From the IMG/VR virus record IMGVR_UViG_3300045988_077293: DNA of 26,793 nucleotides; one strand, 5' to 3'. The position numbers were made by a program, and so were the translations under genes. This stretch comes from a virus. The notes beneath the pieces are model-generated. The model was not told the origin of the DNA and ran no database searches. It saw only the letters and a program-made list of their open reading frames with translations. Shown one piece after another: positions 4,843 to 26,793 of the stretch (positions are counted from its first letter, which is position 1; each line of letters opens with the position of its first letter).

Positions 4843-4870
4843 AAAAAAAAAAGGCGGTCAAACCGCCTTT
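4843..4870 (-). terminator. Rho-independent terminator ending the late/lysis transcription unit
   Basis: The minus strand reads AAGGCGGT-TTG-ACCGCCTT followed by a run of 10 T. It starts at the stop codon of gene 4869-5192. Confidence 0.85.
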
Positions 4871-5192
4871 ATCTTTTCAATTGTCGCTTCATACAGATTT
4901 TTGTTGAGTGAGGATTCTGATTCTGACTTTCTGTGCCATAGGAAACGTTACCTCTACTTACTATATTTATTCCATCGCTGTCCTGTTGACATTCGATTTT
5001 GACATTTTTTTCTATTACGTCAAATTGTTTTTCGTATATTACCCAAGCAAGATTTGATGCAATAAGAGCGAATATCAAAATCAAAATAACTACCCACAGC
5101 CGCGTGTTTATTCTTTCGAGTCTTGTTACTGTCGCTTCGTGTACGACATAGGGAATTGACGTTTTCTCGTTGCAACCGTCGCAAGATTTCAT
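4869..5192 (-). CDS. Single-pass membrane protein of the lysis cassette (N-terminal CxxC, central TM)
   Basis: CDGC, then IPYVVHEATVTRLERINTRLWVVILILIFALIASNLAWVIY. This motif recurs in Firmicutes phage lysis regions in my memory. I do not assert a family name. Confidence 0.5.
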   Translation of the reverse strand: MKSCDGCNEKTSIPYVVHEATVTRLERINTRLWVVILILIFALIASNLAWVIYEKQFDVIEKNVKIECQQDSDGINIVSRGNVSYGTESQNQNPHSTKICMKRQLKR

Positions 5193-5193
5193 A

Positions 5194-5406
5194 TTAACCT
5201 CCTATAAGAAGCTTTAACACCGCACCTAAAACGGCGGTTGCTGTAATGCTTAAAATGGCAAGCAAAAATGACATTTTAGCGTTTATTGCAGATAAAAGCA
5301 CGTCCTGTTGCCTATTCGCTTCTTCAATTGCGGCACGGTATTCGTCGCAGTTCGTCTGTTTTACATATCTTTCATCGAGCTGTTCGATTTCTTCTTTCGT
5401 GAGCAT
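5194..5406 (-). CDS. XhlA-like membrane protein (N-terminal coiled coil, C-terminal TM)
   Basis: 70 aa with a C-terminal FLLAILSITATAVLGAVLKLLIGG. The architecture resembles B. subtilis XhlA. Confidence 0.5.
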   Translation of the reverse strand: MLTKEEIEQLDERYVKQTNCDEYRAAIEEANRQQDVLLSAINAKMSFLLAILSITATAVLGAVLKLLIGG

Positions 5407-5699
5407 TACTTATCCTTTCCGAGCTGCTTCGGTATCTGATTGATACCTACTGCGGAAAGTCCGCTTGCAAGCCCTGTTATGATTGCTCCGTACCAAGTAG
5501 GAGACGGGAGAACATCGGGGCGCACAAAGTAAGTTGCAATCCCCAGCACGCCGCCAATCGCCGCCGCAATTATGGGAATATACTTCTTCAAATATTCTCT
5601 GTCGTTGAGCCACAAGAGCTTAAGACACTCTATAATAGCATATACAGCGGCAGAAATTATTCCAATTGTGATAATAGAATAGCCGTAAATTTCAACCAT
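5406..5699 (-). CDS. Putative holin, three TM segments (Hol118/phiLC3-like architecture)
   Basis: Three TM segments: YSIITIGIISAAVYAIIECL, YIPIIAAAIGGVLGIATYFV and WYGAIITGLASGLSAVGI. The C-terminus is charged (KQLGKDK). Confidence 0.6.
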   Translation of the reverse strand: MVEIYGYSIITIGIISAAVYAIIECLKLLWLNDREYLKKYIPIIAAAIGGVLGIATYFVRPDVLPSPTWYGAIITGLASGLSAVGINQIPKQLGKDK

Positions 5700-5729
5700 A
5701 AAAAAACCGCCTTTCTTTATTCTGTCTCA

Positions 5730-5759
5730 ATTATACCATATTTTGTGTGATTTCGTCAA
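5730..5759 (-). promoter_or_regulatory. Sigma-A type promoter P3 (TTGACG-18 nt-TATAAT with TGG extended -10)
   Basis: The minus strand reads TTGACGAAATCACACAAAATATGGTATAAT, upstream of the holin gene. Confidence 0.6.
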
Positions 5760-5761
5760 GA

Positions 5762-6046
5762 TTATTTGTATATTAAGTAAATAATAAATTGCGTTATTGT
5801 CCAAACCGTCAATATTGCGTACAGTCCGAAAACTGCCCACCCCGCAATTCGCGTGAATTTTACATCCCTGTACCAATATAAGACAAAAAATGCCATTCCC
5901 GCGACAACGACTTTAACGAACCAATCGCAATTGTGGTCTATTGCCCACTTCATCAAAGGGTTTAATTCCACAAATCCCTTGCTGATGAAAAAACGTGTAA
6001 GCAATAAATCAATAATGTTTAGTAAATAAGCAATTAAAATGTGCAT
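5762..6046 (-). CDS. DUF5658-like multi-pass membrane protein
   Basis: LLNIIDLLLTRFFISKGFVELNPLMKW fits the N..D...T....G..E.NP signature. Three to four TM segments. Confidence 0.5.
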   Translation of the reverse strand: MHILIAYLLNIIDLLLTRFFISKGFVELNPLMKWAIDHNCDWFVKVVVAGMAFFVLYWYRDVKFTRIAGWAVFGLYAILTVWTITQFIIYLIYK

Positions 6047-6103: not shown

Positions 6104-8083
6104 TTATCTTTTTAGCGTGAAGAAACGTTTTACACTATCACGCATTTCATCTGAATATTCCATTTCCGAAAGTCTAATCTTTTCAAACTCGTCATCCGTT
6201 AAGAAGTCAAACTGTTCACGTTTGCAAGTGTTGATATGCTTAACCGTCTTATCATATTTCATCTCATCTGTTATCGGATAAAGCATATTTGAATAACGCT
6301 TCGATGTAAGTATGCCGTTTGCAAAGCAGTTGAAATGATATGCTGTGATAATGTTGTAATACTTCACGCTTTCGTGAATTTCTTCACACTTACATTCAGG
6401 AATGTCCTGCGGATATTCAAACAAATGCGTTCTCTTGTTGTAAAGTCTATGAGACTTGCCGTTAGAGCCTACAAGGTTTACTGTCTTGCCGTCCTCGTCT
6501 GTAACGTGCCAATAAGAGTCGCTTGTCTGTTCTTTCTTGATAAAGACAGGCTTTGCATAGTCAAGCTTGCCTTCGTCAAAGTTCCATACAAGAATATCAT
6601 CATCATAGGTAATATCTTGTACAAACTTGTCGCCACACTTTGTTGATATGAGAGTGTTTTCAGCGAAACAAAGGTAAGTATGATATGTTACAAAATTAGC
6701 ATCATCGGTGGCGGTAAAGCTATTGAGGTCGCTCGTTGTTGCCGCATTGTCGCCCTCGAGCGCGATATATTTCGAATATGATAGTGATGAACCTGAAGCT
6801 AAGTCATATAAATTGGCTCTGAAAACTATAGTAGAGGCATTGCTTGCAGCATAATTGACACCTAAGCGTAAATCACCGTAATCAACAAGACTACAGTCCC
6901 ACCGAGAATTAGTAGCATCATAGTATAACTCCGCACTACCCGTTTGCTCCAAATCCTTTATCGTATATATTTTACTTGTTTTGGCGGCGCCTATAGCAGA
7001 ATATGTATCATTGAGTATCTTTATAAGCTGTATTTGCTTGAACGCCGAAGTTGCAAACACCGTCACAATAAAATCTGTATTACCTTCGGTTACAGGTATT
7101 GTCATTGCAGTATCTACTGATATTGCGGAGGTAATATCAAAAGGACTAAGCGATGGGTTTTCCATATCGGGATAACTGCCATCATTATTAAGCAATGCCA
7201 TTGAGACTGTCCCATTCGGCACATAGTAAATCTTGAAGAATTTTACGTTATTATATTCTTCAAGACTGCCAAGGTTGTCTAAGTCAATCCAGTTGCCTTC
7301 GCCGTTTATCTGTATAAAGACGTGTTCGGATATGGTCTCGTCATATGCAATATTGGCAAACGTAATGTAATAACCCTGCGACTCTACCTTTGTAAACGTT
7401 ATGGGCGCGGAAATATCGCTGTCATCGTATGTGCCGTCTTGTGAATACGCCTGCGCCGTTATGCTGTATGTTTTAGCAGTCGGAAAGCAAGAGTCGTTCA
7501 TCGTCACCGTGTAAATGCCGCCCGCAAGCTCCGCCGTCCATTTCGTGCCGTATCCTTGCTCCGTGCCGTCAACAAATACCTTGTAAGCGTATGCCCTCGT
7601 ATCGTTCGGGAACGAGAATTTGCAAACGCCGTCCGCCGATAGGTCGGTGAGAACGGGCGTTGTAAGCTTTTGTTTTGCCACAGCTCCCGCCGTAACAGAA
7701 ATATAAACCGCACCCGTGACGTTTTCAATCTGCACAATGCCGATTTCTCTGCCGTCAGAACCTGTGCCATAGCTCCAAGCGGTAGAAGTGATATCTTGCA
7801 ACGTTCCTGTTCCGTCATCCATTATAACGAGGATTGTTCCCGTCGCAAACGTGTAATTTGCGTAATCTCCGCCGTGCGTGAGGAAAGAAGCCGTTAGGCT
7901 CTTTCCAATAGACACAGCCGTGGGAGCATTTGTCGAGCAGTTCAACACCGCAGTGTGTACCGCTACTCGTGAATATGAAATGACATTAGAAAATGCGCTT
8001 ACGAGCGTTCCGTCCGTTGCTTTTGCACGGAGGATATGATTTCCCGCTCCGAGATTTGTAAGATTATATGTCGCGATTTTCAT
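6104..8083 (-). CDS. Tail fibre / receptor-binding protein with a C-terminal Hint (intein-like) module
   Basis: 659 aa, positioned after the distal tail genes. It contains Ig/FN3-like segments (TTPVLTDLSADG...YKVFVDGTEQG). The C-terminal 188 aa carry Hint blocks A, B and F/G. Confidence 0.75.
   Translation of the reverse strand: MKIATYNLTNLGAGNHILRAKATDGTLVSAFSNVISYSRVAVHTAVLNCSTNAPTAVSIGKSLTASFLTHGGDYANYTFATGTILVIMDDGTGTLQDITSTAWSYGTGSDGREIGIVQIENVTGAVYISVTAGAVAKQKLTTPVLTDLSADGVCKFSFPNDTRAYAYKVFVDGTEQGYGTKWTAELAGGIYTVTMNDSCFPTAKTYSITAQAYSQDGTYDDSDISAPITFTKVESQGYYITFANIAYDETISEHVFIQINGEGNWIDLDNLGSLEEYNNVKFFKIYYVPNGTVSMALLNNDGSYPDMENPSLSPFDITSAISVDTAMTIPVTEGNTDFIVTVFATSAFKQIQLIKILNDTYSAIGAAKTSKIYTIKDLEQTGSAELYYDATNSRWDCSLVDYGDLRLGVNYAASNASTIVFRANLYDLASGSSLSYSKYIALEGDNAATTSDLNSFTATDDANFVTYHTYLCFAENTLISTKCGDKFVQDITYDDDILVWNFDEGKLDYAKPVFIKKEQTSDSYWHVTDEDGKTVNLVGSNGKSHRLYNKRTHLFEYPQDIPECKCEEIHESVKYYNIITAYHFNCFANGILTSKRYSNMLYPITDEMKYDKTVKHINTCKREQFDFLTDDEFEKIRLSEMEYSDEMRDSVKRFFTLKR
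6302..6670 (-). other. Hint/intein-like domain within the tail fibre (codons 472-594)
   Basis: Block A is CFAENTLISTKCGDKFVQDITYDDDILVW, with Cys-1 codon TGT at 6670-6668. Block B-like is GSNGKSHRLYN. Blocks F/G are YYNIITAYHFNCFANGILTS. There is no terminal His-Asn. Confidence 0.7.
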
Positions 8084-8173
8084 TTGTTCTCCTTTGCAAC
8101 TCGTCCGTTAATTCCAAAATCGGAACGGTTGTTGTTTTTATAAGTGTGTTTTTTGTAGTTAGGCATAGGATTA

Positions 8174-10078
8174 TTAATAAGAAGCATACAGGGACAACCC
8201 CGAAACATTGTTCAAAGATATCTCAACAGCTGCTGTATATAGGCTATAATTCAGTGATATAGGTGTTTCATCATTTATTGCGTATTGATACCCCCATACA
8301 AACCCCTTATCATAACTTACATTCAAAGCTGCTCCATTAGATATGTCGGAACCATCACGTGCAGTACCACCTCCGCCGTCACCTCGAACATCAAAGTCGG
8401 ACTCCGATGATGGTGCAGAACCGTACTTTATGTATGTATAGCCAGACTTGGGCTGGTCATACTTGGCTGGAAAATCAAAAACCTTTACAGTATGTGCACC
8501 GTCCGCTATATCGGATAGTGTGGACAAGTCAACAGTCGTTGTGTTCGGAGCGCTCGCAACGTTCGTTTTCAACGTTCCGTCAACATACACATCGTAACTT
8601 GTCGCGTTTGCAACATCTGTTATTTCAAGCGTTTTACCGTCTGCGTTCATTGCGATTGTAGGTGTTGTGAGCTTGTTCTGAATTGTATACGCCACCGCCA
8701 CGCTTTCTTCCGACATTATATATCCATAGCCCGAAGCCTTTACTGTGAGCGAATATGTTCCCACTTCTGTGAGCCACGCAGAAAGATTTATGCTTGTTTC
8801 CGTGACACTCTTTGATTGCGTTGCACCATCTTTTACAGCATTGACGATGTATCCGTCCGCATTTGTTATTGAGTTCCACGACATTGTGCCGTTTGTTATG
8901 CTCGCTGTCGGAGTGCTAAGCTGTGTAAACGTATGTATCAGCGTGTCGTTGTCGTACAGCATAAACGATGTGACTCTATCGTCCGAGCTTGTTATCCACA
9001 GCGTTTCGTTCGTGCTTGTCACCGAGAGAACGGGGGCAGGCAATCCCGCAATTGATACGGATTGTTTAAGCTCCATTGTTGTTGCCGCGCCTTTCCCGAA
9101 AGAATAGGTCAGCGCAGAAATGTACCCCTTCTGCATTTGTCCGTCCCTGTCCTCCGTCTGCACCATTTGTCCCGGTATATATCCTTGCGGAGTTGTAGTC
9201 CCGTACCAAGTCCCCGAATTAAAATAAACAGACGCCATTCTCAAAAGCGTTGCTTGCGCATTTGACGAGTTGACAAGCGTTGCGTTATCAACGCTTATTT
9301 CTCGGTTTGATACGCCCGTAAGGGCTGTATTCGCCATTGTAAGCGTTGATGTAGTATGAACGTATTTATTGCCGTCCGCGTCTATTACAATATCGTCTCC
9401 GCTCGTTCCTGCGGTGTAGGTATGCACTGTAAGATTTACTCTTGCCACTTCGTCCTCGTTGGCAACAGCGGGAAAAGCGTATATCTTGCTCTTCGGGACT
9501 GTTCCTTGCACCGTTGACGGTATTGCTAAAATGTTTATCAAAGCCGAGCAAGCGCAGGAAACATACCCGCCGACCGCCCAACAAAACTGTTGCAGACGTT
9601 CTCTTGCCGTTTGTTCGGGGCAATATCCCGTTATCGTTTTGCCACTGAGCGCATCATCTACATTGTAGGTTACACCAAAAGAGCCGTTTGCGTTTTTTTC
9701 AACGTCTTTGAGCGCGACGGAAAGGGACACGCCATTATAATACTTTGCAGGGACTTTCGGCGTGTCAAGTCTGTAAACAAGGCTGTAACCCTGTATCTCA
9801 TACAAGTTATTGCCGAGATTGTTTATCTGCTTGACAACGTAATGACCTATCGGAGCGACGAGAGGGGAAAGCGGTCGTCCCGTTATCCCCGTGTTGTCGT
9901 CAACGTCCATATATTCCGCTACAAGCGGAGTCTCCGAGCGTATGCGGCATATTGCCGTATCTATCGGCACAATATCCGCCATTATATCGGCGTTTTGCGT
10001 GACTGACAAGCTTTCTATCACGCTTGAATCGTACACCGTCCCGCTCGCCGAGTCCTTTTTATACAGCGTTATTGTCAT
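8174..10078 (-). CDS. Distal tail / baseplate protein (Tal position) with FN3-like repeats
   Basis: ORF 8174-10120 trimmed to the ATG at 10078 (MTITLYKKD), which forms an ATGA overlap with the upstream stop. Repeated modules include LPAPVLSVTS..., NADGYIVNAVKDG... and LTTPTIAMNADGKTLEITDVANATSYDVYVDG. Confidence 0.65.
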   Translation of the reverse strand: MTITLYKKDSASGTVYDSSVIESLSVTQNADIMADIVPIDTAICRIRSETPLVAEYMDVDDNTGITGRPLSPLVAPIGHYVVKQINNLGNNLYEIQGYSLVYRLDTPKVPAKYYNGVSLSVALKDVEKNANGSFGVTYNVDDALSGKTITGYCPEQTARERLQQFCWAVGGYVSCACSALINILAIPSTVQGTVPKSKIYAFPAVANEDEVARVNLTVHTYTAGTSGDDIVIDADGNKYVHTTSTLTMANTALTGVSNREISVDNATLVNSSNAQATLLRMASVYFNSGTWYGTTTPQGYIPGQMVQTEDRDGQMQKGYISALTYSFGKGAATTMELKQSVSIAGLPAPVLSVTSTNETLWITSSDDRVTSFMLYDNDTLIHTFTQLSTPTASITNGTMSWNSITNADGYIVNAVKDGATQSKSVTETSINLSAWLTEVGTYSLTVKASGYGYIMSEESVAVAYTIQNKLTTPTIAMNADGKTLEITDVANATSYDVYVDGTLKTNVASAPNTTTVDLSTLSDIADGAHTVKVFDFPAKYDQPKSGYTYIKYGSAPSSESDFDVRGDGGGGTARDGSDISNGAALNVSYDKGFVWGYQYAINDETPISLNYSLYTAAVEISLNNVSGLSLYASY

Positions 10079-10449
10079 TTTGGCTCCTTTGCCAAGAAAG
10101 ACACGGTGCAATTGCCCCATATGTTTCTTGTTCCCGATATTTTTTTGAGTTCGTCCGCAACCATTGTAACATAAGCTGTGTAAGTCATCGTAGTTTGATT
10201 ATACGGGACTGTCACTGTGTGAAATTCCGTTGCCGAAGCTAAAACCTCGTGAAGTGCCGTATATTCGCTTTCATATCCTCTAAGAGCGGAAAACTGCATT
10301 TCATACTGATAATACACGCCCATTATATCACGGTGATATTTGCCGTCAAGCATAAATCCCGTGAGGGAAGTGTCTTTTATTTCCGCCGTCCGTCTTATGG
10401 GCGTATGCACAAAGACGTGCGGATATGTTGTTCCGTCAACTTTTATCAC
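10075..10449 (-). CDS. Small tail component directly after the tape measure (Dit position)
   Basis: 124 aa, with ATGA-type coupling on both sides. The call is positional only. Confidence 0.45.
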   Translation of the reverse strand: MIKVDGTTYPHVFVHTPIRRTAEIKDTSLTGFMLDGKYHRDIMGVYYQYEMQFSALRGYESEYTALHEVLASATEFHTVTVPYNQTTMTYTAYVTMVADELKKISGTRNIWGNCTVSFLAKEPK

Positions 10450-11990
10450 GTTGCCACCCCCGCAAGTTTAGTACCGTAAATTTGTGATTGTTTCTGATTT
10501 GATTTGTAAACCGCCTTGCCGAATACCTCGCCGTCCACTTCCAGAATAACCGTTGTGTCGCCCGTTCTGTATTCTTTCAGGCGTTCTTCTATTTTCGCCG
10601 CCGTTTCTGCTGTTGTCGTTTCAGGCTGTTTCGTTGTTCCCCTGATTATCGAGGGCAACCAACCTTTATCGGATTCAACCAACGTTTTTCCGAGACTTTT
10701 AACGCCGTTCCATATAGCTTTGATAATTCGTTTTCCAACGTCTATCCAATCTATTTTCATAAACGCTTCAACGAGAGCCGCAGGAATGTTTAACATAAGC
10801 TCAACAAGCTTCACAAAGAAGTCCTCTGAAAGAAGCTTTTCAAGCAACGTCAAGCTTCCGTTGATAAACTGCGAATATAATTCAGGCGCAACGTCAAGGA
10901 GCTGTTCAACAAGCGTAAAAGCGGCTGTCGAAAGCGCGTCAAATACTTTGCTTATCGTTGACGGCGAAAGCAATTGACTTGCAACTGCGGCTCCCGCCTG
11001 CGTAATGCTTGACAGTATTTTCGGCAACCCATCGAGTATTCCTTCCGCAAATGCCCCTGTGAGCGTCATAGCGACGCTTGTGAGGTCGGGAATGCGCGAG
11101 GTAATATAATTTACCACATTCGCTAAAATGCTTCCCGCAGACTTCAAAAGAGCCTTTGTGCCGCCTGTCTTATATGCTGTGGCGAGCTGTTCAAGTCCTT
11201 TGTTTACCTTAGGCAAAACCGATGATATAAGCCCTTGCGATATCGGCTGAAACACTTCCCCGACAAGTGCCTTCGCATTGTCTTTCAATGTGGAAACAAG
11301 TCCCTTGAAAGTTTTGCTCTGCCTCTGCATTGCGCCTTCGTAAATTCCACCCGCCGAAGCCGCTTTTATGAGAGCCGCCGACAAATCATCATAATTTATC
11401 TGCAAGTCTTTGACTTCTTCGGTAGTTACGCCGAGATAATCCGCCATAATCTTGTAGATGTTTATTCCCGCCATTGCGAATTGCTTTATATCAATAGCGG
11501 AAGCCACGCCGACGTTTTTAATCTGCTGTAAGTTTGCCGCCATTCGGGACAATTCATCGTTACCGCCGCCCGTCGCCGATACAGCATCGCCAAGCGCAAG
11601 GATTGTTTCGCGGGCGTTTTCTGCGCTTACACCCGCACCAATCAAAAGCTGGTTTGCTTGAACGAGTCCTGCAACGTCAAAAGGCGTTTTTGCCGCGTCC
11701 TCTTTTATGTTCTTTATGACTTTATTTGCTTCCTCTGCCGTTCCGAGCAAAGTTGTAAGCCCCATTGTGTAGCTCTCTATCTGCGCATTATAATTAACGC
11801 CTATTCTTCCGAGTGCTACAAGCCCCGCTCCGACACTTGCAATCGCCGCCGCTCCGATTTTTGCCGCAGAAGCAAGCCCTTTGCCGAGCGTCGAAGCAAG
11901 ACTTTTGCCCGAAGCTGTCGCTTCTTTCACGCCCCTATCATACGCGGAGCTGTCAAGGCTCAATTTAGCATATAAATTAAACAAACTCAT
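10446..11990 (-). CDS. Tail tape measure protein (TP901-type core)
   Basis: ORF 10446-12029 trimmed to the ATG at 11990 (MSLFNLYAKLSLD), which has an AAAGGAGGAAACC SD. The core is TPFDVAGLVQANQLLIGAGVSAENARETILALGDAVSATGGGNDELSRMAANLQQIKNVG. The sequence is Ala/Gly-rich and helical. Confidence 0.9.
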   Translation of the reverse strand: MSLFNLYAKLSLDSSAYDRGVKEATASGKSLASTLGKGLASAAKIGAAAIASVGAGLVALGRIGVNYNAQIESYTMGLTTLLGTAEEANKVIKNIKEDAAKTPFDVAGLVQANQLLIGAGVSAENARETILALGDAVSATGGGNDELSRMAANLQQIKNVGVASAIDIKQFAMAGINIYKIMADYLGVTTEEVKDLQINYDDLSAALIKAASAGGIYEGAMQRQSKTFKGLVSTLKDNAKALVGEVFQPISQGLISSVLPKVNKGLEQLATAYKTGGTKALLKSAGSILANVVNYITSRIPDLTSVAMTLTGAFAEGILDGLPKILSSITQAGAAVASQLLSPSTISKVFDALSTAAFTLVEQLLDVAPELYSQFINGSLTLLEKLLSEDFFVKLVELMLNIPAALVEAFMKIDWIDVGKRIIKAIWNGVKSLGKTLVESDKGWLPSIIRGTTKQPETTTAETAAKIEERLKEYRTGDTTVILEVDGEVFGKAVYKSNQKQSQIYGTKLAGVAT

Positions 11991-12309
11991 TAAGGTTTCC
12001 TCCTTTCGTGGAGATTTTAAGCCCCGCATTTTTTATCACTCTCGCGGCTATCTCGTCCCCGCTCTCGCCTTTATCGCCTTCCACGATGTCTGCAAAGCGT
12101 TGTGTGAGCCGTTTGCCCTGCGCATAGTAAAAGATACTATCCGAGATGTAATAATCAAATGCGGCGCGTTTAGCGCGTTCCTGCGCCATATACAGCAATT
12201 CGGCGGTGATGTATTCAACCCCGCCGAACATTTTCGCTTTTATGGGGTCAATGGCCGCCAAATCGTGCTGTACGTTCAGCGCGTCAAGTCCATTAACCGC
12301 ACCAAAAAA
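11977..12309 (-). CDS. Tail assembly chaperone -1 frame extension (T part of G-T)
   Basis: The -1 frame is open from the slippery site through ORF 11977-12261 (GAVNGLDALNVQHDLAAIDPIKAKMFGG...NLNEFV). It has no SD or credible start of its own. Confidence 0.7.
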   Translation of the reverse strand, partial: FFGAVNGLDALNVQHDLAAIDPIKAKMFGGVEYITAELLYMAQERAKRAAFDYYISDSIFYYAQGKRLTQRFADIVEGDKGESGDEIAARVIKNAGLKISTKGGNLNEFV

Positions 12310-12687: not shown

Positions 12688-13272
12688 TTATGTTCCGGCT
12701 TTGATGTAGATTTCAAACGGACATACTTCAGGCGTAGCCGCGCTTGCGTGCGCTGTAAACTCAGCCGCAAACGAGCCTTTATCCTTTTCCGCGCTCTGTA
12801 TCTGAAAACCGCCAGTCGAAAGCGCGTTAACAAGGTGTATTGCGATGTAGCCACCCGATTCCGAGCTGTGCTTGTCGGAGTAGTCGCCAACCCACCAAAC
12901 ATCGAAAAAGTCTGTATCTGTAAGATTTGTTCTCGGTGTTACCTTCGTTGTGTCGCTCGCGCCGATATCTGCCGCGCCGAGAAGCTTTTTCGCAAGGTCG
13001 GTTGTTACTGTTTTGAATGTTCCCGAAAGCTTAAACTTCCACGAGTCAAGCTCTTTGCCTTCTTTCGTGTTTTTCACGGAATTGTCTATGCCTTCGGCAA
13101 GGTCAATATAAGTCGGTGTAGCCGTTACATTAACTCCGCCATCGGTTGCGCCGAGAATATCCGTAATCGTGAGTTCAGCAGTTGACGGGGTAAAATCGGA
13201 AAGCAGTACGCCCGCATTGAGCTGAAGCTCTTTATATGTGTTTGCGGGTATCTGCGTGAATTTCATTCCCAT
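12688..13272 (-). CDS. Major tail (tube) protein
   Basis: 194 aa, positioned immediately before the chaperones. The composition is beta-rich (GTFKTVTTDLAKKLLGA..., FEIYIKAGT). The start could be the second ATG at 13266. Confidence 0.75.
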   Translation of the reverse strand: MGMKFTQIPANTYKELQLNAGVLLSDFTPSTAELTITDILGATDGGVNVTATPTYIDLAEGIDNSVKNTKEGKELDSWKFKLSGTFKTVTTDLAKKLLGAADIGASDTTKVTPRTNLTDTDFFDVWWVGDYSDKHSSESGGYIAIHLVNALSTGGFQIQSAEKDKGSFAAEFTAHASAATPEVCPFEIYIKAGT

Positions 13273-14437: not shown

Positions 14438-15295
14438 TTAGAATGTGCATTTAAGACCTGCAAGTCTCTTTGCGTCAACGACCTTTGCGCCGTAAAGGTG
14501 AAGTCCCTTAACAGCGTCAGCAAATCTCTTTTCGGGTCTGTAAGCTTCGGTGCTTGTAATCTGCTCTGCATATGTGCAAGCGCCTTCGTCGCCCGCCGTG
14601 ATTGTATATGTTGTGGTGTTCGAGGAAGTTGCGCTGTTGCAGTTGTTCGACATATAGATGTCAAAGCCTGCCGCTCTTGCAACCCAACCATTGCGGAGGG
14701 TTTCTTCTGCCATTGCGCCGCCTGTCTTTACGAAACGGTCGTCCTGAAGAATGAGCGCAACCATTTCAGGCGGGATTACAAGCCAACGACCCGTTGTGGG
14801 AACGTTTGCTTTGTCAAGGACTGTTTTCATCTTGACAACGTTTTCATAAACGTTATCTTTTGTGAGCGCAACAGCCGTTGTGCCGACCTGATTGCCGTTT
14901 GCCGTTGTAATAGCTGCCGCGAGCTGGTCGGCAAGATATTTGTCCGCAACGTCATTGAGTCCATAAGCGGCTCTCTGCATTGCTTTGTCCATAACGTCGC
15001 CTGCTGCCTGTGCTGTGTCGATATCGTCAACAGCAAAATTGAAGTATTTTGCCTGATCAATAACGAGCGTCTGGTCGGTTGTGGTAAGTGCCTGAGGACC
15101 CGATGTAAAGTCTGTGTCCTTTGTGTATGTGCCGATTGTTACCGCGCCAATCGTATTTATATGCACGGTATCGCCCTGCTTCTTGATATCGCCTTCGTAA
15201 TCTCTGTTTACGAGTCCTGCGAAAACGTGAGCCTTGTCAAGAGCGTTGAGAAGTCTCGCGTTCCAAAGTTCGGGAATGAATGATGTAAGTGCCAT
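14438..15295 (-). CDS. Major capsid protein (HK97 fold, P22-coat-like family)
   Basis: FIPELWNARLLNALDKAHVFAGLVNRDYEGDIKKQGDTVHINT fits the N-terminal signature. 285 aa, follows the scaffold gene, strong SD. Confidence 0.85.
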   Translation of the reverse strand: MALTSFIPELWNARLLNALDKAHVFAGLVNRDYEGDIKKQGDTVHINTIGAVTIGTYTKDTDFTSGPQALTTTDQTLVIDQAKYFNFAVDDIDTAQAAGDVMDKAMQRAAYGLNDVADKYLADQLAAAITTANGNQVGTTAVALTKDNVYENVVKMKTVLDKANVPTTGRWLVIPPEMVALILQDDRFVKTGGAMAEETLRNGWVARAAGFDIYMSNNCNSATSSNTTTYTITAGDEGACTYAEQITSTEAYRPEKRFADAVKGLHLYGAKVVDAKRLAGLKCTF

Positions 15296-17635: not shown

Positions 17636-17812
17636 TTAGCGTATCGTGCACGTCAACAGCATATCGGGGATAAGAGCCACACCGTCTTTTACATCAACGT
17701 CAAAAGAACGTCCTAGCTGTTTATTTGAAAAATGCACCTGTGCGCTATCCGCCGTTACGCTTCGTCCTGTGTCCCATTGAAAAAGCGTTGTTCTTTCGTC
17801 TGTTAGTTTCAT
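17636..17812 (-). CDS. Small ORF (58 aa) between the portal and MuF-like genes
   Basis: The ATG at 17812-17810 overlaps the portal TGA as ATGA. My translation is MKLTDERTTLFQWDTGRSVTADSAQVHFSNKQLGRSFDVDVKDGVALIPDMLLTCTIR. It fills an otherwise empty 200-nt gap. Confidence 0.45.
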   Translation of the reverse strand: MKLTDERTTLFQWDTGRSVTADSAQVHFSNKQLGRSFDVDVKDGVALIPDMLLTCTIR

Positions 17813-19149
17813 TCTGCCACCTCATATCTGCTTTGTTCTTCCGTTCTGCGTTTTCTGATTATTTCGTCCGTTTTATCAGCTATGCCGAGTATTTGGCAGA
17901 CTTGCTCGACGATCGTTTCGTCGTCAAGGTACGCCTGAGCCGCAAGCAATGTGTTTATCTCGTCGGATTTGTTAATAACTTTGGAACGTGTGAATGTGAC
18001 TTTATCGTCTATTCCCGCAAGTTCGAGAATTTTCTGCACAAACTCAATAACGCAATATTCGTACATATCGCATTTGCTATCGAGCGGCTGGTATGCGGCT
18101 TTAATCTCTGTGGCTGTTTTATTTGCCGCCGAAAGGGAATTTACATCAAGGCACATAAAGTCCTCATACAGCCGTCTCTGTATCGTCTGAATGGCACTCT
18201 CGCTTGCCTGATACGGCGCTTCTATCGTGTGCGCTTCCGCTGTTGCTCCGCTGTCGCCGTCCGCGTGCGCAACGTGCGTTGTTTTCAACTGCTCAATAAA
18301 CTTCGCGTCGTCCATCTCGTCCATTCCCCCGCAGTTCGTGAGAACCCAATAAATGTAGTTCGCCTCGTCAAGGTTGTTCACAAGGTTGCTGTTCAGGAGG
18401 TCGAAAGCGTCAAGCGTTCCCTGCCTGCCGACAAGCTCCGACTGCTTTTTATCATTTCCCCAAAGCGGGACTATCGGGAACGTCGGGTAATTCTCGCCGT
18501 CGTATATCTCCTCGCCGTCCGCTTCTGATGTGCGCACTTTGAGTTTATAAGGTCGTTTTTCGTGGAGTATTGCGCTTTCGTCGTTCGCCCTTAGATAATC
18601 CGTGTATCCGTCCTCTTCGTACAACGTCGCCCTCATAGGTTTATCAGGCGATACTTGCCAAAATCTTATGCCCGCTCTCAATGCGCCGTTTTCTTCGTCA
18701 TAAAGCGGAACGAATTCCAACAGCGAAAAAGTGTCGATGTGGTCAAGGTTGAAAAATCCGAACGCCACTCCGCCGACAAGTGCCTTTTTCCCCAAGTCCT
18801 GCAACTGTGTGTCGAAGTCATTCCCAAGCTTTGCCTTTGTATCGTCTTTTGTAAATGTTGCACCGTTGCCGAGTAAGTATTGATTTTCCTGCGTTATCGC
18901 AAAATTTAAAAAGTTTGACGCTATTTTATGGTTCGGTGTCCATTTGTCAACGTGCGCGTCGCCCCGCATATCATAGATAATTTTTTCGTACTTCGTTATG
19001 CGCGGGTTTAGTCCCCTGTAATATTGCTCTGCGTCAAGAGCGATAATATAAGGCTCAGTGCCTTTGTGTTCGGTAATGGCGGCAAAAACAAACGCCATTT
19101 TTGCGGCTTCGTTTTTGCTTGCCGCAATTAAGTCCTGATAGCTCTTCAT
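17809..19149 (-). CDS. Portal protein (SPP1 gp6-like)
   Basis: 446 aa, directly after TerL. Contains typical portal segments (NHKIASNFLNFAITQENQYLLGNG..., FPIVPLWGNDKKQSEL..., ATEIKAAYQPLDSK). Confidence 0.9.
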   Translation of the reverse strand: MKSYQDLIAASKNEAAKMAFVFAAITEHKGTEPYIIALDAEQYYRGLNPRITKYEKIIYDMRGDAHVDKWTPNHKIASNFLNFAITQENQYLLGNGATFTKDDTKAKLGNDFDTQLQDLGKKALVGGVAFGFFNLDHIDTFSLLEFVPLYDEENGALRAGIRFWQVSPDKPMRATLYEEDGYTDYLRANDESAILHEKRPYKLKVRTSEADGEEIYDGENYPTFPIVPLWGNDKKQSELVGRQGTLDAFDLLNSNLVNNLDEANYIYWVLTNCGGMDEMDDAKFIEQLKTTHVAHADGDSGATAEAHTIEAPYQASESAIQTIQRRLYEDFMCLDVNSLSAANKTATEIKAAYQPLDSKCDMYEYCVIEFVQKILELAGIDDKVTFTRSKVINKSDEINTLLAAQAYLDDETIVEQVCQILGIADKTDEIIRKRRTEEQSRYEVAE

Positions 19150-19153
19150 TCGT

Positions 19154-20416
19154 TCACCCCTTAAGTATAGATTGATAATCGCCGTTCTTCTTCCAAAGTC
19201 TGCGGATTTGGCACGACAAGCTGTCGGGCGCGTCGTCGTGTTCCGCGTTTTCGTTGTAGTTGCAAACTTGCTCTATATATTCTTTGTCGGTATCCTCAAC
19301 AAAGTATATATTCTTCCATTCGGCTTTCAGATAGGACGTTATTTTGAGATATTTATTCATATTCTCGTGATAAATAACTACACGTTCGCCCCTGCGCCGT
19401 AATTCCTTACCTAGATATCCTTTGTCTCCGTTGTCCTCAACGAATATCTTCCCCGCATTAAACCGAGCGTGTAACGCTTGTATTTCGTCGAGACAATCGT
19501 CGACGTGTTTGTTCCATAGCTTGCCGAGTACATAATAAACATCGCCGTCTTTCCTGACAAGCGTGTATGCCGTAAGGTCGCTCCCTCCATATGCCGCGTC
19601 TATATGTCCGTCGCCTTGTTCCACAAGATATGAACCTGCGCCCGTGTGCGGATTTGAGAATATAACAGCCTCCGCCGCAATATGCCGCAACTCGTAGTTG
19701 CACGCAAACAGAGAAGCCGTCATACTTTCCTTGACTTCGGCAACGTCCTCTTCTGTCATCAGTCCCGTTGAGTAGCAGTCCCACTTTTCGGGAGAGGGCA
19801 TAATTGAAAAGCAGTCATCGGCGTGCCACGGCGTTCCCGTGTTGAAAATCCGCCCGCCCCTGTTCTTGATGTTCTGCAACTCCTGATATACAGTTTTTGT
19901 CCGCTCTCGCTCCGCCTTTGATATTCGGTCGTTGACGTTGACAATATCGTCTGTAAAAATCCTGTCAAAGTGCTTTCCCGTCAGAGAGCCGCCGCAACCC
20001 GCTCCGATAAGCTGTGCCGTTCCTCTTATGTCTATTGACAGGTTTGTCGTCAGCTCCGTCGCATTTTCAGTCGCAAGCCTTAAATTAACGCCATAAATAC
20101 ACTGCACAAAATACAGTGTGTGCGGGTCTTGCAGGATTTTTGACGTCTGCTTGATAATCTCTTTAACGTCGTTGTCGGTCTTTCGCATAAACATTGTGCG
20201 CTTGTTCGGGAGAAGAATAATAATTATTGCCAAAGCCAACGACACGCACGTTGTCTTATAAGAGCCTCTGTGCGCCTGCAGCGTCTTATCATCCTTGCCG
20301 ACAATCATATCCCTTATCCATTTGTTGTGAAGCTCCGTCAGCTTCGTAAACCCGAGCATATGCCCCAGTTTATACGGAGACGTTAAAAGAAAATTGACCG
20401 CCTGTTCGCGCGTCAT
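19154..20416 (-). CDS. terL: Terminase large subunit
   Basis: Trimmed to the ATG at 20416, an ATGA overlap with the upstream stop (MTREQAVNFLL). Walker A-like HRGSYKTT, Walker B RIFTDD, and GTPWH. The nuclease half has IDAAYGGSDLTA, VEDNGDKG and HDDAPDS. Confidence 0.95.
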   Translation of the reverse strand: MTREQAVNFLLTSPYKLGHMLGFTKLTELHNKWIRDMIVGKDDKTLQAHRGSYKTTCVSLALAIIIILLPNKRTMFMRKTDNDVKEIIKQTSKILQDPHTLYFVQCIYGVNLRLATENATELTTNLSIDIRGTAQLIGAGCGGSLTGKHFDRIFTDDIVNVNDRISKAERERTKTVYQELQNIKNRGGRIFNTGTPWHADDCFSIMPSPEKWDCYSTGLMTEEDVAEVKESMTASLFACNYELRHIAAEAVIFSNPHTGAGSYLVEQGDGHIDAAYGGSDLTAYTLVRKDGDVYYVLGKLWNKHVDDCLDEIQALHARFNAGKIFVEDNGDKGYLGKELRRRGERVVIYHENMNKYLKITSYLKAEWKNIYFVEDTDKEYIEQVCNYNENAEHDDAPDSLSCQIRRLWKKNGDYQSILKG

Positions 20417-21480
20417 ACATAATACACCGCCTTTAACCTTGACGGCAACCATTCAAACATCATAAACCGCTTATGCGCTCCAATGTAGCCTTCGCTGTTG
20501 CCCCAAGCATCGTCAGGTTTCGCCGTGCTTGTGCGCCTTATCATAACCCCGTATAAGTCGCTCTCGCTCTCACAGTGCAAATGCCCTGCGTGTATCTCGC
20601 GCACGTCGCTGTCTGCAAACTCTGTCGGAAAGCGTATTGTAAACTGCCCCCGAAGGTCTCTCGGCTCTCTTTTCGCGCCTTCGCCGTGTGTCACGCCAAT
20701 GAAACATCTACGCCAATGTATGCACTTTCTGTCTCGGAACGTGTCATCAAAATGCGCCTGAGGAAAAGCCACTTGCAACGCCTTGAATAGACACCACGAG
20801 GAGCATTCATCGTGATTTCCCTTTGAGTAAATAACATTTACCTTTTGCGAGTGTTCTAAACAAGCGGGGATGACGTTCTGCCAAAAGTTCCACGCGTCTT
20901 CCCATGCGTTCCGGAAGTCCGCCGCTTCAATACTCGTTCCCTTTGCCGTATGACCGCGCATATCGTTCGTGTGGAGCATATCTTGACCGAATATGATATT
21001 TATCTCGTCATATGCTTTCGCTTCGATAATGCCCTTTATTTCGCGCGTCTGCTGTGTGTAGTCTTCAAGGCTTGCAATTCCGAAGTGCATATCGAAGAGC
21101 GGGATTTCAAGCATTGTGTCGCCGCCTATTTCGCAAGCGTCTATTTTGAGCGGCTGAACGTTTTCTCGGATAAAGTCCTTTATGTCGTCCCAATTGACGT
21201 CCTCTGCTTTTTGCTTAATCCACGCTTGTGTTATTTCTCCGTTTCCGTTCACTTGCACCGTTGCGCCGTGAGCTGTAAATCCTCCGTATGTTCCACTCTC
21301 CAAGGTTACGCCGTCCGCCATTTGCTTATTACGCCAATATCGAAGCTTCCTCGCAAACGTCGAAAACGACATACTGTCCCCGTGTTCGGGGGCAAATATG
21401 CCGTTATAAATTTCTCTTGCGGTTTTTCCAGTGTATGACTCTTTAACGCATCGCACTTTAAGGTCGTAGGGTATAATCAT
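20413..21480 (-). CDS. Calcineurin-like metallophosphoesterase with an N-terminal HTH-like domain, inside the packaging module
   Basis: Motifs in order: LFDMHFG (DxH), FGQDMLH, SKGNHDE (GNHD/E), GVTHGE and HAGHLHCE (GHxH). The N-terminus VKESYTGKTAREIYNGIF is HTH-like. The gene is translationally coupled to terL. Confidence 0.75.
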   Translation of the reverse strand: MIIPYDLKVRCVKESYTGKTAREIYNGIFAPEHGDSMSFSTFARKLRYWRNKQMADGVTLESGTYGGFTAHGATVQVNGNGEITQAWIKQKAEDVNWDDIKDFIRENVQPLKIDACEIGGDTMLEIPLFDMHFGIASLEDYTQQTREIKGIIEAKAYDEINIIFGQDMLHTNDMRGHTAKGTSIEAADFRNAWEDAWNFWQNVIPACLEHSQKVNVIYSKGNHDECSSWCLFKALQVAFPQAHFDDTFRDRKCIHWRRCFIGVTHGEGAKREPRDLRGQFTIRFPTEFADSDVREIHAGHLHCESESDLYGVMIRRTSTAKPDDAWGNSEGYIGAHKRFMMFEWLPSRLKAVYYV

Positions 21481-26173: not shown

Positions 26174-26793
26174 TTATTTACCCTTTTTAACTTCTACAAA
26201 CTTCCATCCGCCAGCCTGATATATCGTTTTTGAATAACAATCTTTGAACGTTGCATTGTCGGATATGATGAGTGACGCTGAATTATTCCACTTGGTATAC
26301 GGAGTACTTTTGACCATGGCATTGCCGTAGATGTACTTGACCGTGGCACTATCGTAGATGTTCTCGACCGTGGCTTCGCCGTAGATGTACTTGACCGTGG
26401 CACTATCGTAGATGTTCTCGACCGTGGCATTGCCGTAGATGTACTTGACCGTGGCATTGCCGTAGATGTTCTTGACCGTGGCTTCGCCGCAGATGTTCTT
26501 GACCATGGCATTGCCGTAGATGTTCTTGACCGTGGCTTCGCCGCAGATGTTCTCGACCGTGGCATTGCCGTAGATGTACTTGACCGTGGCACTATCGTAG
26601 ATGTTCTCGACCGTGGCTTCGCCGTAGATGTACTTGACCGTGGCATTGCCGTAGATGTTCTCGACCGTGGCTTCGCCGTAGATGTACTTGACCGTGGCAT
26701 TGCCGTAGATGTTCTCGACCGTGGCTTCGCCGTAGATGTACTTGACCGTGGCACTATCGTAGATGTTCTCGACCGTGGCATTGCCGTAGATGT
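26174..26793 (-). CDS. Decapeptide-repeat protein, 3' part (repeats plus a ~45-aa C-terminal tail); continuation of 437..1
   Basis: The frame of ORF 26174-26506 stays open to the window end (…IYGNATVENIY…). The repeat consensus is G-[NE/DS]-A-T-V-[EK]-[NY]-I-Y. The tail is STPYTKWNNSASLIISDNATFKDCYSKTIYQAGGWKFVEVKKGK. Confidence 0.8.
   Translation of the reverse strand, partial: IYGNATVENIYDSATVKYIYGEATVENIYGNATVKYIYGEATVENIYGNATVKYIYGEATVENIYDSATVKYIYGNATVENICGEATVKNIYGNAMVKNICGEATVKNIYGNATVKYIYGNATVENIYDSATVKYIYGEATVENIYDSATVKYIYGNAMVKSTPYTKWNNSASLIISDNATFKDCYSKTIYQAGGWKFVEVKKGK
26305..26793. repeat. Near-perfect 30-nt (60-nt super-period) tandem repeat array, continuing at 1-88
   Basis: Units of the form GACCGTGGC[ATT/TTC/ACT][GCC/ATC]GTAGATGT[AC/TC]T[TC]. 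There are about 17-19 units in total across the junction, and many are identical over 60 nt. Confidence 0.9.

Follow-up and report, generated by a model that had tools for sequence, protein, structure and literature searches.

The IMG/VR virus record IMGVR_UViG_3300045988_077293, an entire 26,793-bp contig from a human-gut metagenome (hereafter the window), encodes on its minus strand a 659-amino-acid (aa) distal tail or fibre-like protein. The last 188 residues of this protein form a portable, BIL-like Hint cassette that probably removes itself from the fibre by cleavage at the bond in front of Cys472. The cassette consists of a Hint domain and a conserved C-terminal tail, and this reading is carried by the predicted fold, by the invariance of the putative catalytic residues across a large metagenomic family and by the sharp step in conservation at Cys472. 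The features of the gene, all on the minus strand, are listed below.

6104..8083, minus strand: whole precursor gene of the distal tail or fibre-like protein, with the stop codon at 6104-6106
8089..8094, minus strand: ribosome-binding site AAGGAG, 6 nt 5' of the ATG, strong, read from the sequence
6671..8083, minus strand: cargo ('N-extein'), residues 1-471, the predicted mature fibre of 50.7 kDa
6671..7048, minus strand: variable tip domain, residues 346-471, directly before the predicted scissile bond, modelled at low confidence by AlphaFold2 (AF2)
6668..6673, minus strand: predicted scissile junction Leu471/Cys472, with the Cys codon TGT at 6670-6668
6302..6670, minus strand: Hint domain, residues 472-594, 14.3 kDa, predicted local distance difference test (pLDDT) ~90-98 in AF2, supported by Foldseek and by hmmsearch against BIL2
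6446..6451, minus strand: block B, His545-Arg546, the His invariant and aligned with HRFYD of BIL2
6302..6361, minus strand: blocks F/G, residues 575-594, YYN577-IIT580-AYH583-FN585-CFANGILT593-S594
6299..6307, minus strand: C-terminal junction of the Hint domain, Thr593-Ser594-Lys595, without Asn
6107..6301, minus strand: conserved tail, residues 595-659 (KRYSNML...TLKR), 8.1 kDa
6272..6289, minus strand: tail motif N599-M-L-Y602-P603-I604
6164..6178, minus strand: tail motif I636-R637-L638-S-E640, with the family consensus G-L-R-L-x-E

The Hint domain and its C-terminal tail

The open reading frame (ORF) list and translation give one unbroken 659-aa reading frame at 6104..8083, corresponding to a precursor of 73.1 kDa, in which VGSNGKSHRLYN represents residues 538-549 and YYNIITAYHFNCFANGILTS residues 575-594. 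Re-translation reproduced the ORF, the Cys472 codon, the motif positions and the 65-aa tail that had been given in a preliminary description of the window. An antisense ORF at 6335-6646 on the plus strand sits within this strongly conserved coding region and was rejected as spurious.

On the protein alone, Pfam Hint_2 (PF13403) scores 14.1-17.7 bits, below the gathering threshold of 28.4 and over block A only (profile positions 2-29), and similarly weak Pfam Hint matches are found in 7 of 16 relatives. PHROGs and NCBIfam give nothing above threshold on the 659-aa protein. The assignment therefore had to be based on an alignment of the family and on a structure model. The AF2 model of residues 452-659, built with the family alignment, has a pLDDT of 87 and a predicted template modelling score (pTM) of 0.82, with model positions 21-208 mostly above 85. 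When this module model was compared with the PDB using Foldseek, the top 50 matches were all BIL, intein or Hedgehog Hint structures (probability 1.00, TM(target) 0.56-0.73), including Tetrahymena BIL2 (6TMM/6Y75) at E 2e-7 and Hedgehog HhC (1AT0) at E 1.5e-5; the C. thermocellum BIL 2LWY and many mini-inteins were also matched. In addition, the trimmed family profile matches BIL2 over the whole Hint domain at E 1e-4 (hmmsearch, profile positions 6-141), and phmmer against the PDB returned one intein, AceL NrdHF, at E 0.0017. The prediction that residues 472-594 adopt the Hint fold is secure. The preliminary description had proposed a Hint module and its examination by Pfam and structure prediction; the Pfam part gave the sub-threshold Hint_2 match, and the predicted structure and the BIL2 profile match bear the module out.

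Conservation was counted over 150 family representatives with at most 50% mutual identity. Cys472, His545, Asn577, Asn585 and Ser594 are each present in 150/150, Thr593 is kept in 143 and His583 in 146 of the representatives, and Thr580 and Arg546 are conserved in 99% and 96%, respectively. Cys472 is residue 1 of the domain, and all profile and Pfam matches start there, in agreement with the earlier placement of block A. The earlier block B-like segment also stands, with His545 (in ...SHRLYN) as its histidine, aligned with HRFYD of BIL2; His69 of BIL2 is the catalytic block-B histidine (PMC8616854). At the other end of the domain, ...NCFANGILT593 is aligned with ...HNFFANGVLA of BIL2, placing Thr593 opposite the mutated terminal Asn143 of BIL2.

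The 65-aa extension had been described as something that follows the module, and this view has to be revised. The tail is present in 148 of the 150 top family representatives, it is modelled by AF2 at a pLDDT of 84-94 as short helices and beta-bridges, and Asn599 is conserved in 99%, Tyr602 in 99% and Ile604 in 97%, as are Arg637 in 100% and Glu640 in 99% of the sequences having the position. The tail is an integral, conserved and well-packed part of the module and not an appended extra. It is strongly hydrophilic, with a grand average of hydropathy of -1.13 and 43% charged residues. Its first position, 595, is Cys in 75% of the representatives and Cys, Ser or Thr in 87%, an aliphatic residue in 9% and Lys in 4%, the latter being the clade to which the present phage belongs.

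Cassette boundary, cargo and carriers

Among 85 relatives with a closely similar module, the identity to the present fibre rises from 0.37 over the ten residues that precede Cys472 to 0.93 over the ten that begin with it; at position -1 it is 0.05 and at Cys472 it is 1.0. The ratio of nonsynonymous to synonymous substitution rates (dN/dS) changes at the same place. In the comparison with the IMG/VR relative L049, the Hint domain has a dN/dS of 0.074, the tail one of 0.16 and the whole module one of 0.09; the central beads of the cargo are at 0.087 and the tip (residues 346-471) is at 1.1. A second relative gives module values as for L049. The synonymous divergence (dS) from L049 is 0.55 for the module and 0.09 for the cargo, and because the module value is six times that of the cargo, the cassette was likely exchanged by recombination with a more distant source. 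Judged from these comparisons, the module is a conserved, functional and portable unit that is joined to fast-evolving tips exactly at the predicted scissile bond.

The cargo itself is mosaic. Relatives of the N-terminal part of the fibre (n = 117) end in Hint plus tail in 64 cases, in a different, tail-less Hint (...FANGLLAGN and ~13 residues) in five cases and in an unrelated LRR_5-type tip without Hint in 48 cases. The latter (P0229-P0267) have only the first ~140 aa in common with the present fibre (window ~7670-8083, 90-99% identity), after which they run into LRR_5 (BspA-type) repeats and end in ...NPSINTTYYIAG. Because these 48 relatives combine a near-identical N-terminus with an end that lacks Hint, the fibre gene can be regarded as a mosaic with exchangeable tips. 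The five fibres with the tail-less Hint (P0285, P0287, P0289, P0291 and P0293) have the same N-terminal and middle domains as the present fibre, and their Hint ends in ...NYFANGLLAGN, with the canonical terminal Asn, followed by only ~13 residues. Since these sister fibres carry a different Hint at the same position, Hint-mediated C-terminal processing looks recurrent in this group.

The AF2 model of residues 1-471 has a pLDDT of 61, too poor for the fold of the tip or the oligomeric state to be read from it. Its sole confident part, residues 136-345, comprises two beta-sandwich domains, for which Foldseek returned tandem Ig/FN3 domains and Gram-positive pilins. In the model, the cargo looks like tandem Ig/FN3-type beads rather than a classical trimeric fibre.

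When 1.84 billion cluster representatives were searched with the Hint-plus-tail profile, 3,828 of them matched at E<=1e-3, and with the limit set at E<=1e-30 the number was 837. In 132 of the top 150 members, no more than 30 residues separate the end of the module from the C-terminus of the protein. The cargo in front of it measures 1 to 1,069 aa and has domains of surface or fibre type, among which Flg_new, LRR_5, fn3, YadA head, fimbrillin-like, tip-attachment-J Ig, collagen and He_PIG domains are found. Carriers on viral contigs (9 to 573 kb) measure 268-1,606 aa and lack a signal peptide. Two carriers, on phage-like contigs of 180-290 kb, have tape-measure and DUF6273 genes nearby, and PHROGs assigned a single label, 'tail fiber', among ten viral carriers, via a collagen-like stretch. 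In species-representative genomes, 39 loci were found, all in uncultivated lineages and mostly from the gut or rumen, including Clostridia, Gastranaerophilaceae, Alphaproteobacteria, Bacteroidales, Acholeplasmataceae, Saccharibacteria and others. Of the cellular carriers (loci L009-L044 on contigs of metagenome-assembled genomes in GTDB, for example L009, L025 and L042), about half have a prepilin-type N-terminus and a length of 450-690 aa. TIGR02532 (prepilin cleavage/methylation) is above its cutoff in 3 of 10 tested carriers, and most of the others show weaker pilin or pseudopilin matches. Sec-type signal peptides are present in some of the remaining cellular carriers, and a Tat-type signal in one whose neighbouring genes are ordinary cellular ones. 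Going by these N-termini, the module is used in cytoplasmic (phage) as well as extracytoplasmic (pilin, Sec or Tat) proteins.

Hint plus tail is a large family without a curated model in Pfam, NCBIfam or PHROGs. The source names of ten family members are 'hypothetical protein' or absent, and no conserved partner gene adjoins the module in the neighbourhoods examined. A tblastn search of 50,697 GenBank phage genomes with the whole fibre and with consensus-like module queries gave no match, and a plasmid search gave one weak match, a Streptomyces polymorphic toxin-type HINT with 26% identity. The literature search returned no report of a C-terminal Hint on fibres or pilins, only canonical inteins in phage terminase, ribonucleotide reductase and helicase genes. 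The statement in the preliminary description that this is not a standard fibre architecture agrees with the deposited phages and the literature; the architecture is not rare, and the module forms a very large metagenomic family that also occurs on type IV pilin-like proteins.

Several members depart from the usual layout. In a minority arrangement, seen in P0099, P0123, P0164 and P0170, the module is not terminal and the tail is followed by a ~140-aa HAD_SAK_2 phosphatase-like domain; P0123 also has an N-terminal family-25 glycosyltransferase. P0033 (1,052 aa) has Hint plus tail at 647-832 and then a second Hint-like start (Hom_end_hint, 850-908), and it may carry two tandem Hint modules. The best viral structural match, A0A3G5A239 in BFVD (Gaeavirus sp., 523 aa), is assigned to a metagenomic giant virus and shows 36% identity over 203 columns including the tail, and the module either occurs in giant-virus bins or contaminates them. 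At loci L031, L038 and L045, the carrier ORFs become more than 30 codons longer when TGA is read as sense (table 4, ad hoc ORF extraction), and these may represent recoded hosts or phages.

Proposed self-cleavage and its alternatives

In the proposed mechanism, the 659-aa distal tail protein would be made as a precursor. After folding, the thiol of Cys472 would attack the carbonyl of Leu471 in an N-to-S acyl shift assisted by His545, and the thioester would then be resolved by water or a thiol. The mature fibre would then have a mass of 50.7 kDa and end at Leu471, and the released Hint-tail fragment, of 22.4 kDa, would not remain in the virion. Asn599, Tyr602, Arg637 and Glu640 may complete or regulate the active site. 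The cassette could serve as a transient C-terminal cap for hypervariable tips that aids folding, assembly or solubility, or that masks the tip, a role that may be likened to that of the S74 intramolecular chaperone with a different chemistry. The N-terminal acyl shift at Leu471/Cys472 that the preliminary description read from the motif set has strong indirect support in the invariance of Cys472 and His545, the boundary at Cys472 and the strong purifying selection on the module. BIL domains without a C-terminal motif do cleave at their N-terminus (PMC7765530). Splicing, already considered improbable from the motifs, is excluded because the terminal Asn is replaced by Thr593-Ser594, Lys595 follows and nothing lies beyond the tail to be ligated; the His-Asn and +1 set of splicing inteins is absent.

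Four observations weigh against simple self-removal. The Thr of the block-B TxxH motif, three residues before His545, is not conserved in the family. The residue at -1 to Cys472 in the 150 representatives is Pro in 34, Ile in 25, Tyr in 14, Leu in 14 and another residue in the rest, and Pro, Ile and Thr, which are frequent at this position in the family, belong to the slow class for intein N-cleavage. The conservation of the tail, together with Cys595 in three quarters of the family, exceeds the apparent needs of plain hydrolysis and hints at a more elaborate reaction. Finally, the existence of LRR_5-tipped variants without Hint implies that fibre assembly does not in general depend on the cassette. 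With regard to the second point, every -1 residue allows intein N-cleavage, some more slowly (PMC11842431), and the idea that Pro at -1 would decisively refute cleavage was dropped for this reason. By analogy, slow -1 residues would suit a delayed, post-folding cut.

The third observation leads to an acyl-transferring (ligating) Hint like Hedgehog HhC or BIL2, which is unlikely and nevertheless the alternative that survives best. Here the Cys472 thioester would be passed to a nucleophile placed by the tail, which would act as an 'adduct-recognition region' (ARR). In most members the acyl group would move first to Cys595, and the C-terminus of the fibre or pilin would be joined to a small molecule, a subunit, the cell wall or a receptor; in the present protein the acceptor could be the side chain of Lys595. 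The layout of Hint, Ser-Cys junction and ~65-aa helical terminal tail mirrors the Hint plus sterol-recognition region (SRR) or ARR of Hog proteins, and the Cys, Ser or Thr found at 595 in most members corresponds in position to the intein +1 residue or to C143 of Hedgehog. This late Cys of HhC accepts the acyl group as a branched thioester (PMC12054796); the attack by a nucleophile that the C-terminal region holds comes afterwards (PMC12054796, PMC9163320, PMC2362128). Asn599, Tyr602, Arg637 and Glu640 show the same invariance as the catalytic residues, the cargo proteins are adhesion organelles, and BIL2, the closest solved relative, moves its N-extein onto lysine side chains (PMC8616854). 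On the other side, the present fibre has Lys595 and an aliphatic residue takes this place in some representatives, the highly charged, hydrophilic tail does not resemble a region that binds sterols or lipids, and hhalign gives no specific HhC relationship (probability 2.8%, block A only). Activity in differing compartments would also argue against a compartment-specific co-substrate, and a conserved partner gene next to the module is missing. It is doubtful that Hint plus tail is a prokaryotic or viral counterpart of the ligating Hint, by which phage fibres and type IV pilin-like adhesins would become covalently attached to one of these partners.

It is also improbable that the module is a non-cleaving structural domain, in which Hint and tail would stay in place as a distal knob for receptor binding or oligomerisation and the Hint ancestry would be merely historical. 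The fold is compact and confidently predicted, it is located at the very tip, where receptor-binding domains usually are, and slow-class -1 residues are common. However, a binding domain should vary with the host, and here the module is the most conserved part (dN/dS 0.09) and the preceding domain is the one that varies (1.1). Without catalysis, it is difficult to account for the invariance of Cys472 and His545 in 150 divergent representatives with unrelated cargos, and the module is also found at the end of pilin-like and secreted proteins from many phyla.

A canonical mobile intein, or a pre-toxin HINT of a polymorphic toxin that releases a C-terminal toxin, is very improbable: the weak intein similarity (AceL NrdHF, with sub-threshold intein_Nterm and Hom_end_hint matches) and the toxin-type annotation of the one weak plasmid match are set against the lack of a terminal Asn, a +1 nucleophile, a homing endonuclease or a host protein that resumes after the domain, against a conserved tail behind hypervariable upstream cargo where toxin systems vary downstream and are conserved upstream, and against the absence of any PT-HINT Pfam (PF07591) match at any reported threshold and the downstream genes, which are DUF5658 and a holin.

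If the cassette cleaves itself as proposed, it would be a second, chemically unrelated removable C-terminal maturation module on phage receptor-binding proteins, beside S74. The solution would be common to phage fibres and type IV pilin-like adhesins, thereby linking viral and cellular fibre maturation. As the family is not seen by Pfam, NCBIfam and PHROGs, the annotation of gut viromes would misplace the true C-terminus of many receptor-binding proteins, which matters for host-range prediction and fibre engineering. A compact 188-aa Hint module that performs the N-terminal step only, tolerates nearly all cargos and any -1 residue and is active within the cytoplasm as well as beyond it could be used as a self-cleaving tag or thioester generator, and the invariant tail residues and relay Cys could provide a tractable bacterial system for studying how Hint shifts from splicing to cleavage or transfer. 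If the acyl group is transferred instead, its purpose would be covalent attachment and not the mere removal of a cap.

Genome setting and known systems

All genes of the window are on the minus strand and follow the classical siphovirus order. Besides the 659-aa gene, the following features were recognised.

19154-20452, minus strand: large terminase
17809-19149, minus strand: portal
14438-15295, minus strand: major head protein
12688-13272, minus strand: major tail protein
10446-12029, minus strand: tape measure
between the tape measure and the 648-aa ORF, minus strand: 124-aa ORF
8174-10120, minus strand: 648-aa ORF, tail protein, immediately before the 659-aa gene
5762-6046, minus strand: DUF5658 membrane protein, after the 659-aa gene
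5406-5699, minus strand: holin

The 659-aa gene is the last large gene of the tail module, placed after the 648-aa ORF and before the DUF5658 gene and holin. The label 'tail fibre' is a positional one, because its basis is gene order only; the order fits this earlier designation, and the classical trimeric fibre that it brings to mind is not what the Ig/FN3-like beads of the cargo resemble. A 100%-identical protein and relatives of 653-664 aa (73-96% identity) are found on many independent contigs, and for this reason the fusion of cargo and Hint is considered real and not an assembly artefact. The C-terminal part of the 648-aa tail protein contains the motif ...TTTVDLSTLSDIADGAHTVKV..., which nearly matches MSKTTLDLSTLSDISDGTHTVKVKAKADGY in the N-terminal Ig-like domain of two short Hint-plus-tail carriers, P0003 and P0012, on jumbo-phage-like contigs; this similarity suggests that these proteins share an attachment or bead domain.

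Nucleotides 1-55 of the contig are identical to the last 55 nt (26739-26793), which makes it probable that the contig represents a complete, circular genome assembly of about 26.7 kb. A third copy of this terminal stretch is located at 26388-26442, and the overlap lies inside short tandem repeats with units of ~27 nt (...GACCGTGGCAxTxxCGTAGATGTTCTC...), so that the circularisation could instead be repeat-driven. The lysis region (4869-6046) comprises the DUF5658 membrane protein, the holin and two small ORFs of 70 and 107 aa, and no endolysin was recognisable next to these genes in Pfam and PHROG scans.

Among known systems, the BIL domains give the best structural and sequence matches. According to the summary of Amitai et al. 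2003 and Dassa et al. 2004 given in PMC7765530, B-type BIL domains have the N-terminal motifs of inteins without the C-terminal splicing motif and occur in variable regions of secreted or non-conserved proteins. The fibre module likewise has blocks A and B and lacks the C-terminal His-Asn, its hosts are hypervariable secreted or surface proteins and not conserved enzymes, and N-terminal cleavage via a Cys1 thioester would be expected. In contrast to BIL domains, it stays below the Hint_2 threshold, has an obligatory ~65-aa extension with invariant residues of its own, is terminal instead of internal and has as its carriers phage fibre-like and type IV pilin-like proteins from uncultivated organisms of the gut and rumen.

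With the Hog proteins, the module shares a variable secreted cargo, Cys1, the Hint domain, a Ser-Cys junction (75% of the family) and a partly helical terminal region of ~65 aa, and its fold matches that of 1AT0. As far as the sequence is concerned, the hhalign comparison with a Drosophila HhC sequence led to the rejection of a specific relationship to Hedgehog, and PF01079 does not match the present protein. In addition, the junction of the fibre is Leu-Cys, so that the -1 residue is not Gly, the tail is charged and not hydrophobic, and Lys replaces the relay Cys. The Hint of the sister fibres likewise stands at the extreme C-terminus and has Cys1 as well as the HR motif; it differs from the present module in being another subtype, just below the PF01079 threshold, with the terminal Asn kept and without a conserved tail.

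The S74 domain is a C-terminal module of phage tailspikes and fibres, such as endosialidase and the T5 L-shaped fibre, in which a Ser-Lys dyad protease acts after trimerisation. Pfam and PHROGs give no S74 match on the present protein, and the two modules differ in fold and chemistry (Ser-Lys dyad versus Hint thioester) and in cargo (triple beta-helix versus Ig-type beads). What they would have in common is the autocatalytic removal of a C-terminal fibre module once it has played its part in maturation, and the cassette is proposed as a functional analogue of S74. The module, which lies below every curated family threshold, is nearest to the BIL domains by sequence and structure and nearest to the Hog proteins by architecture.

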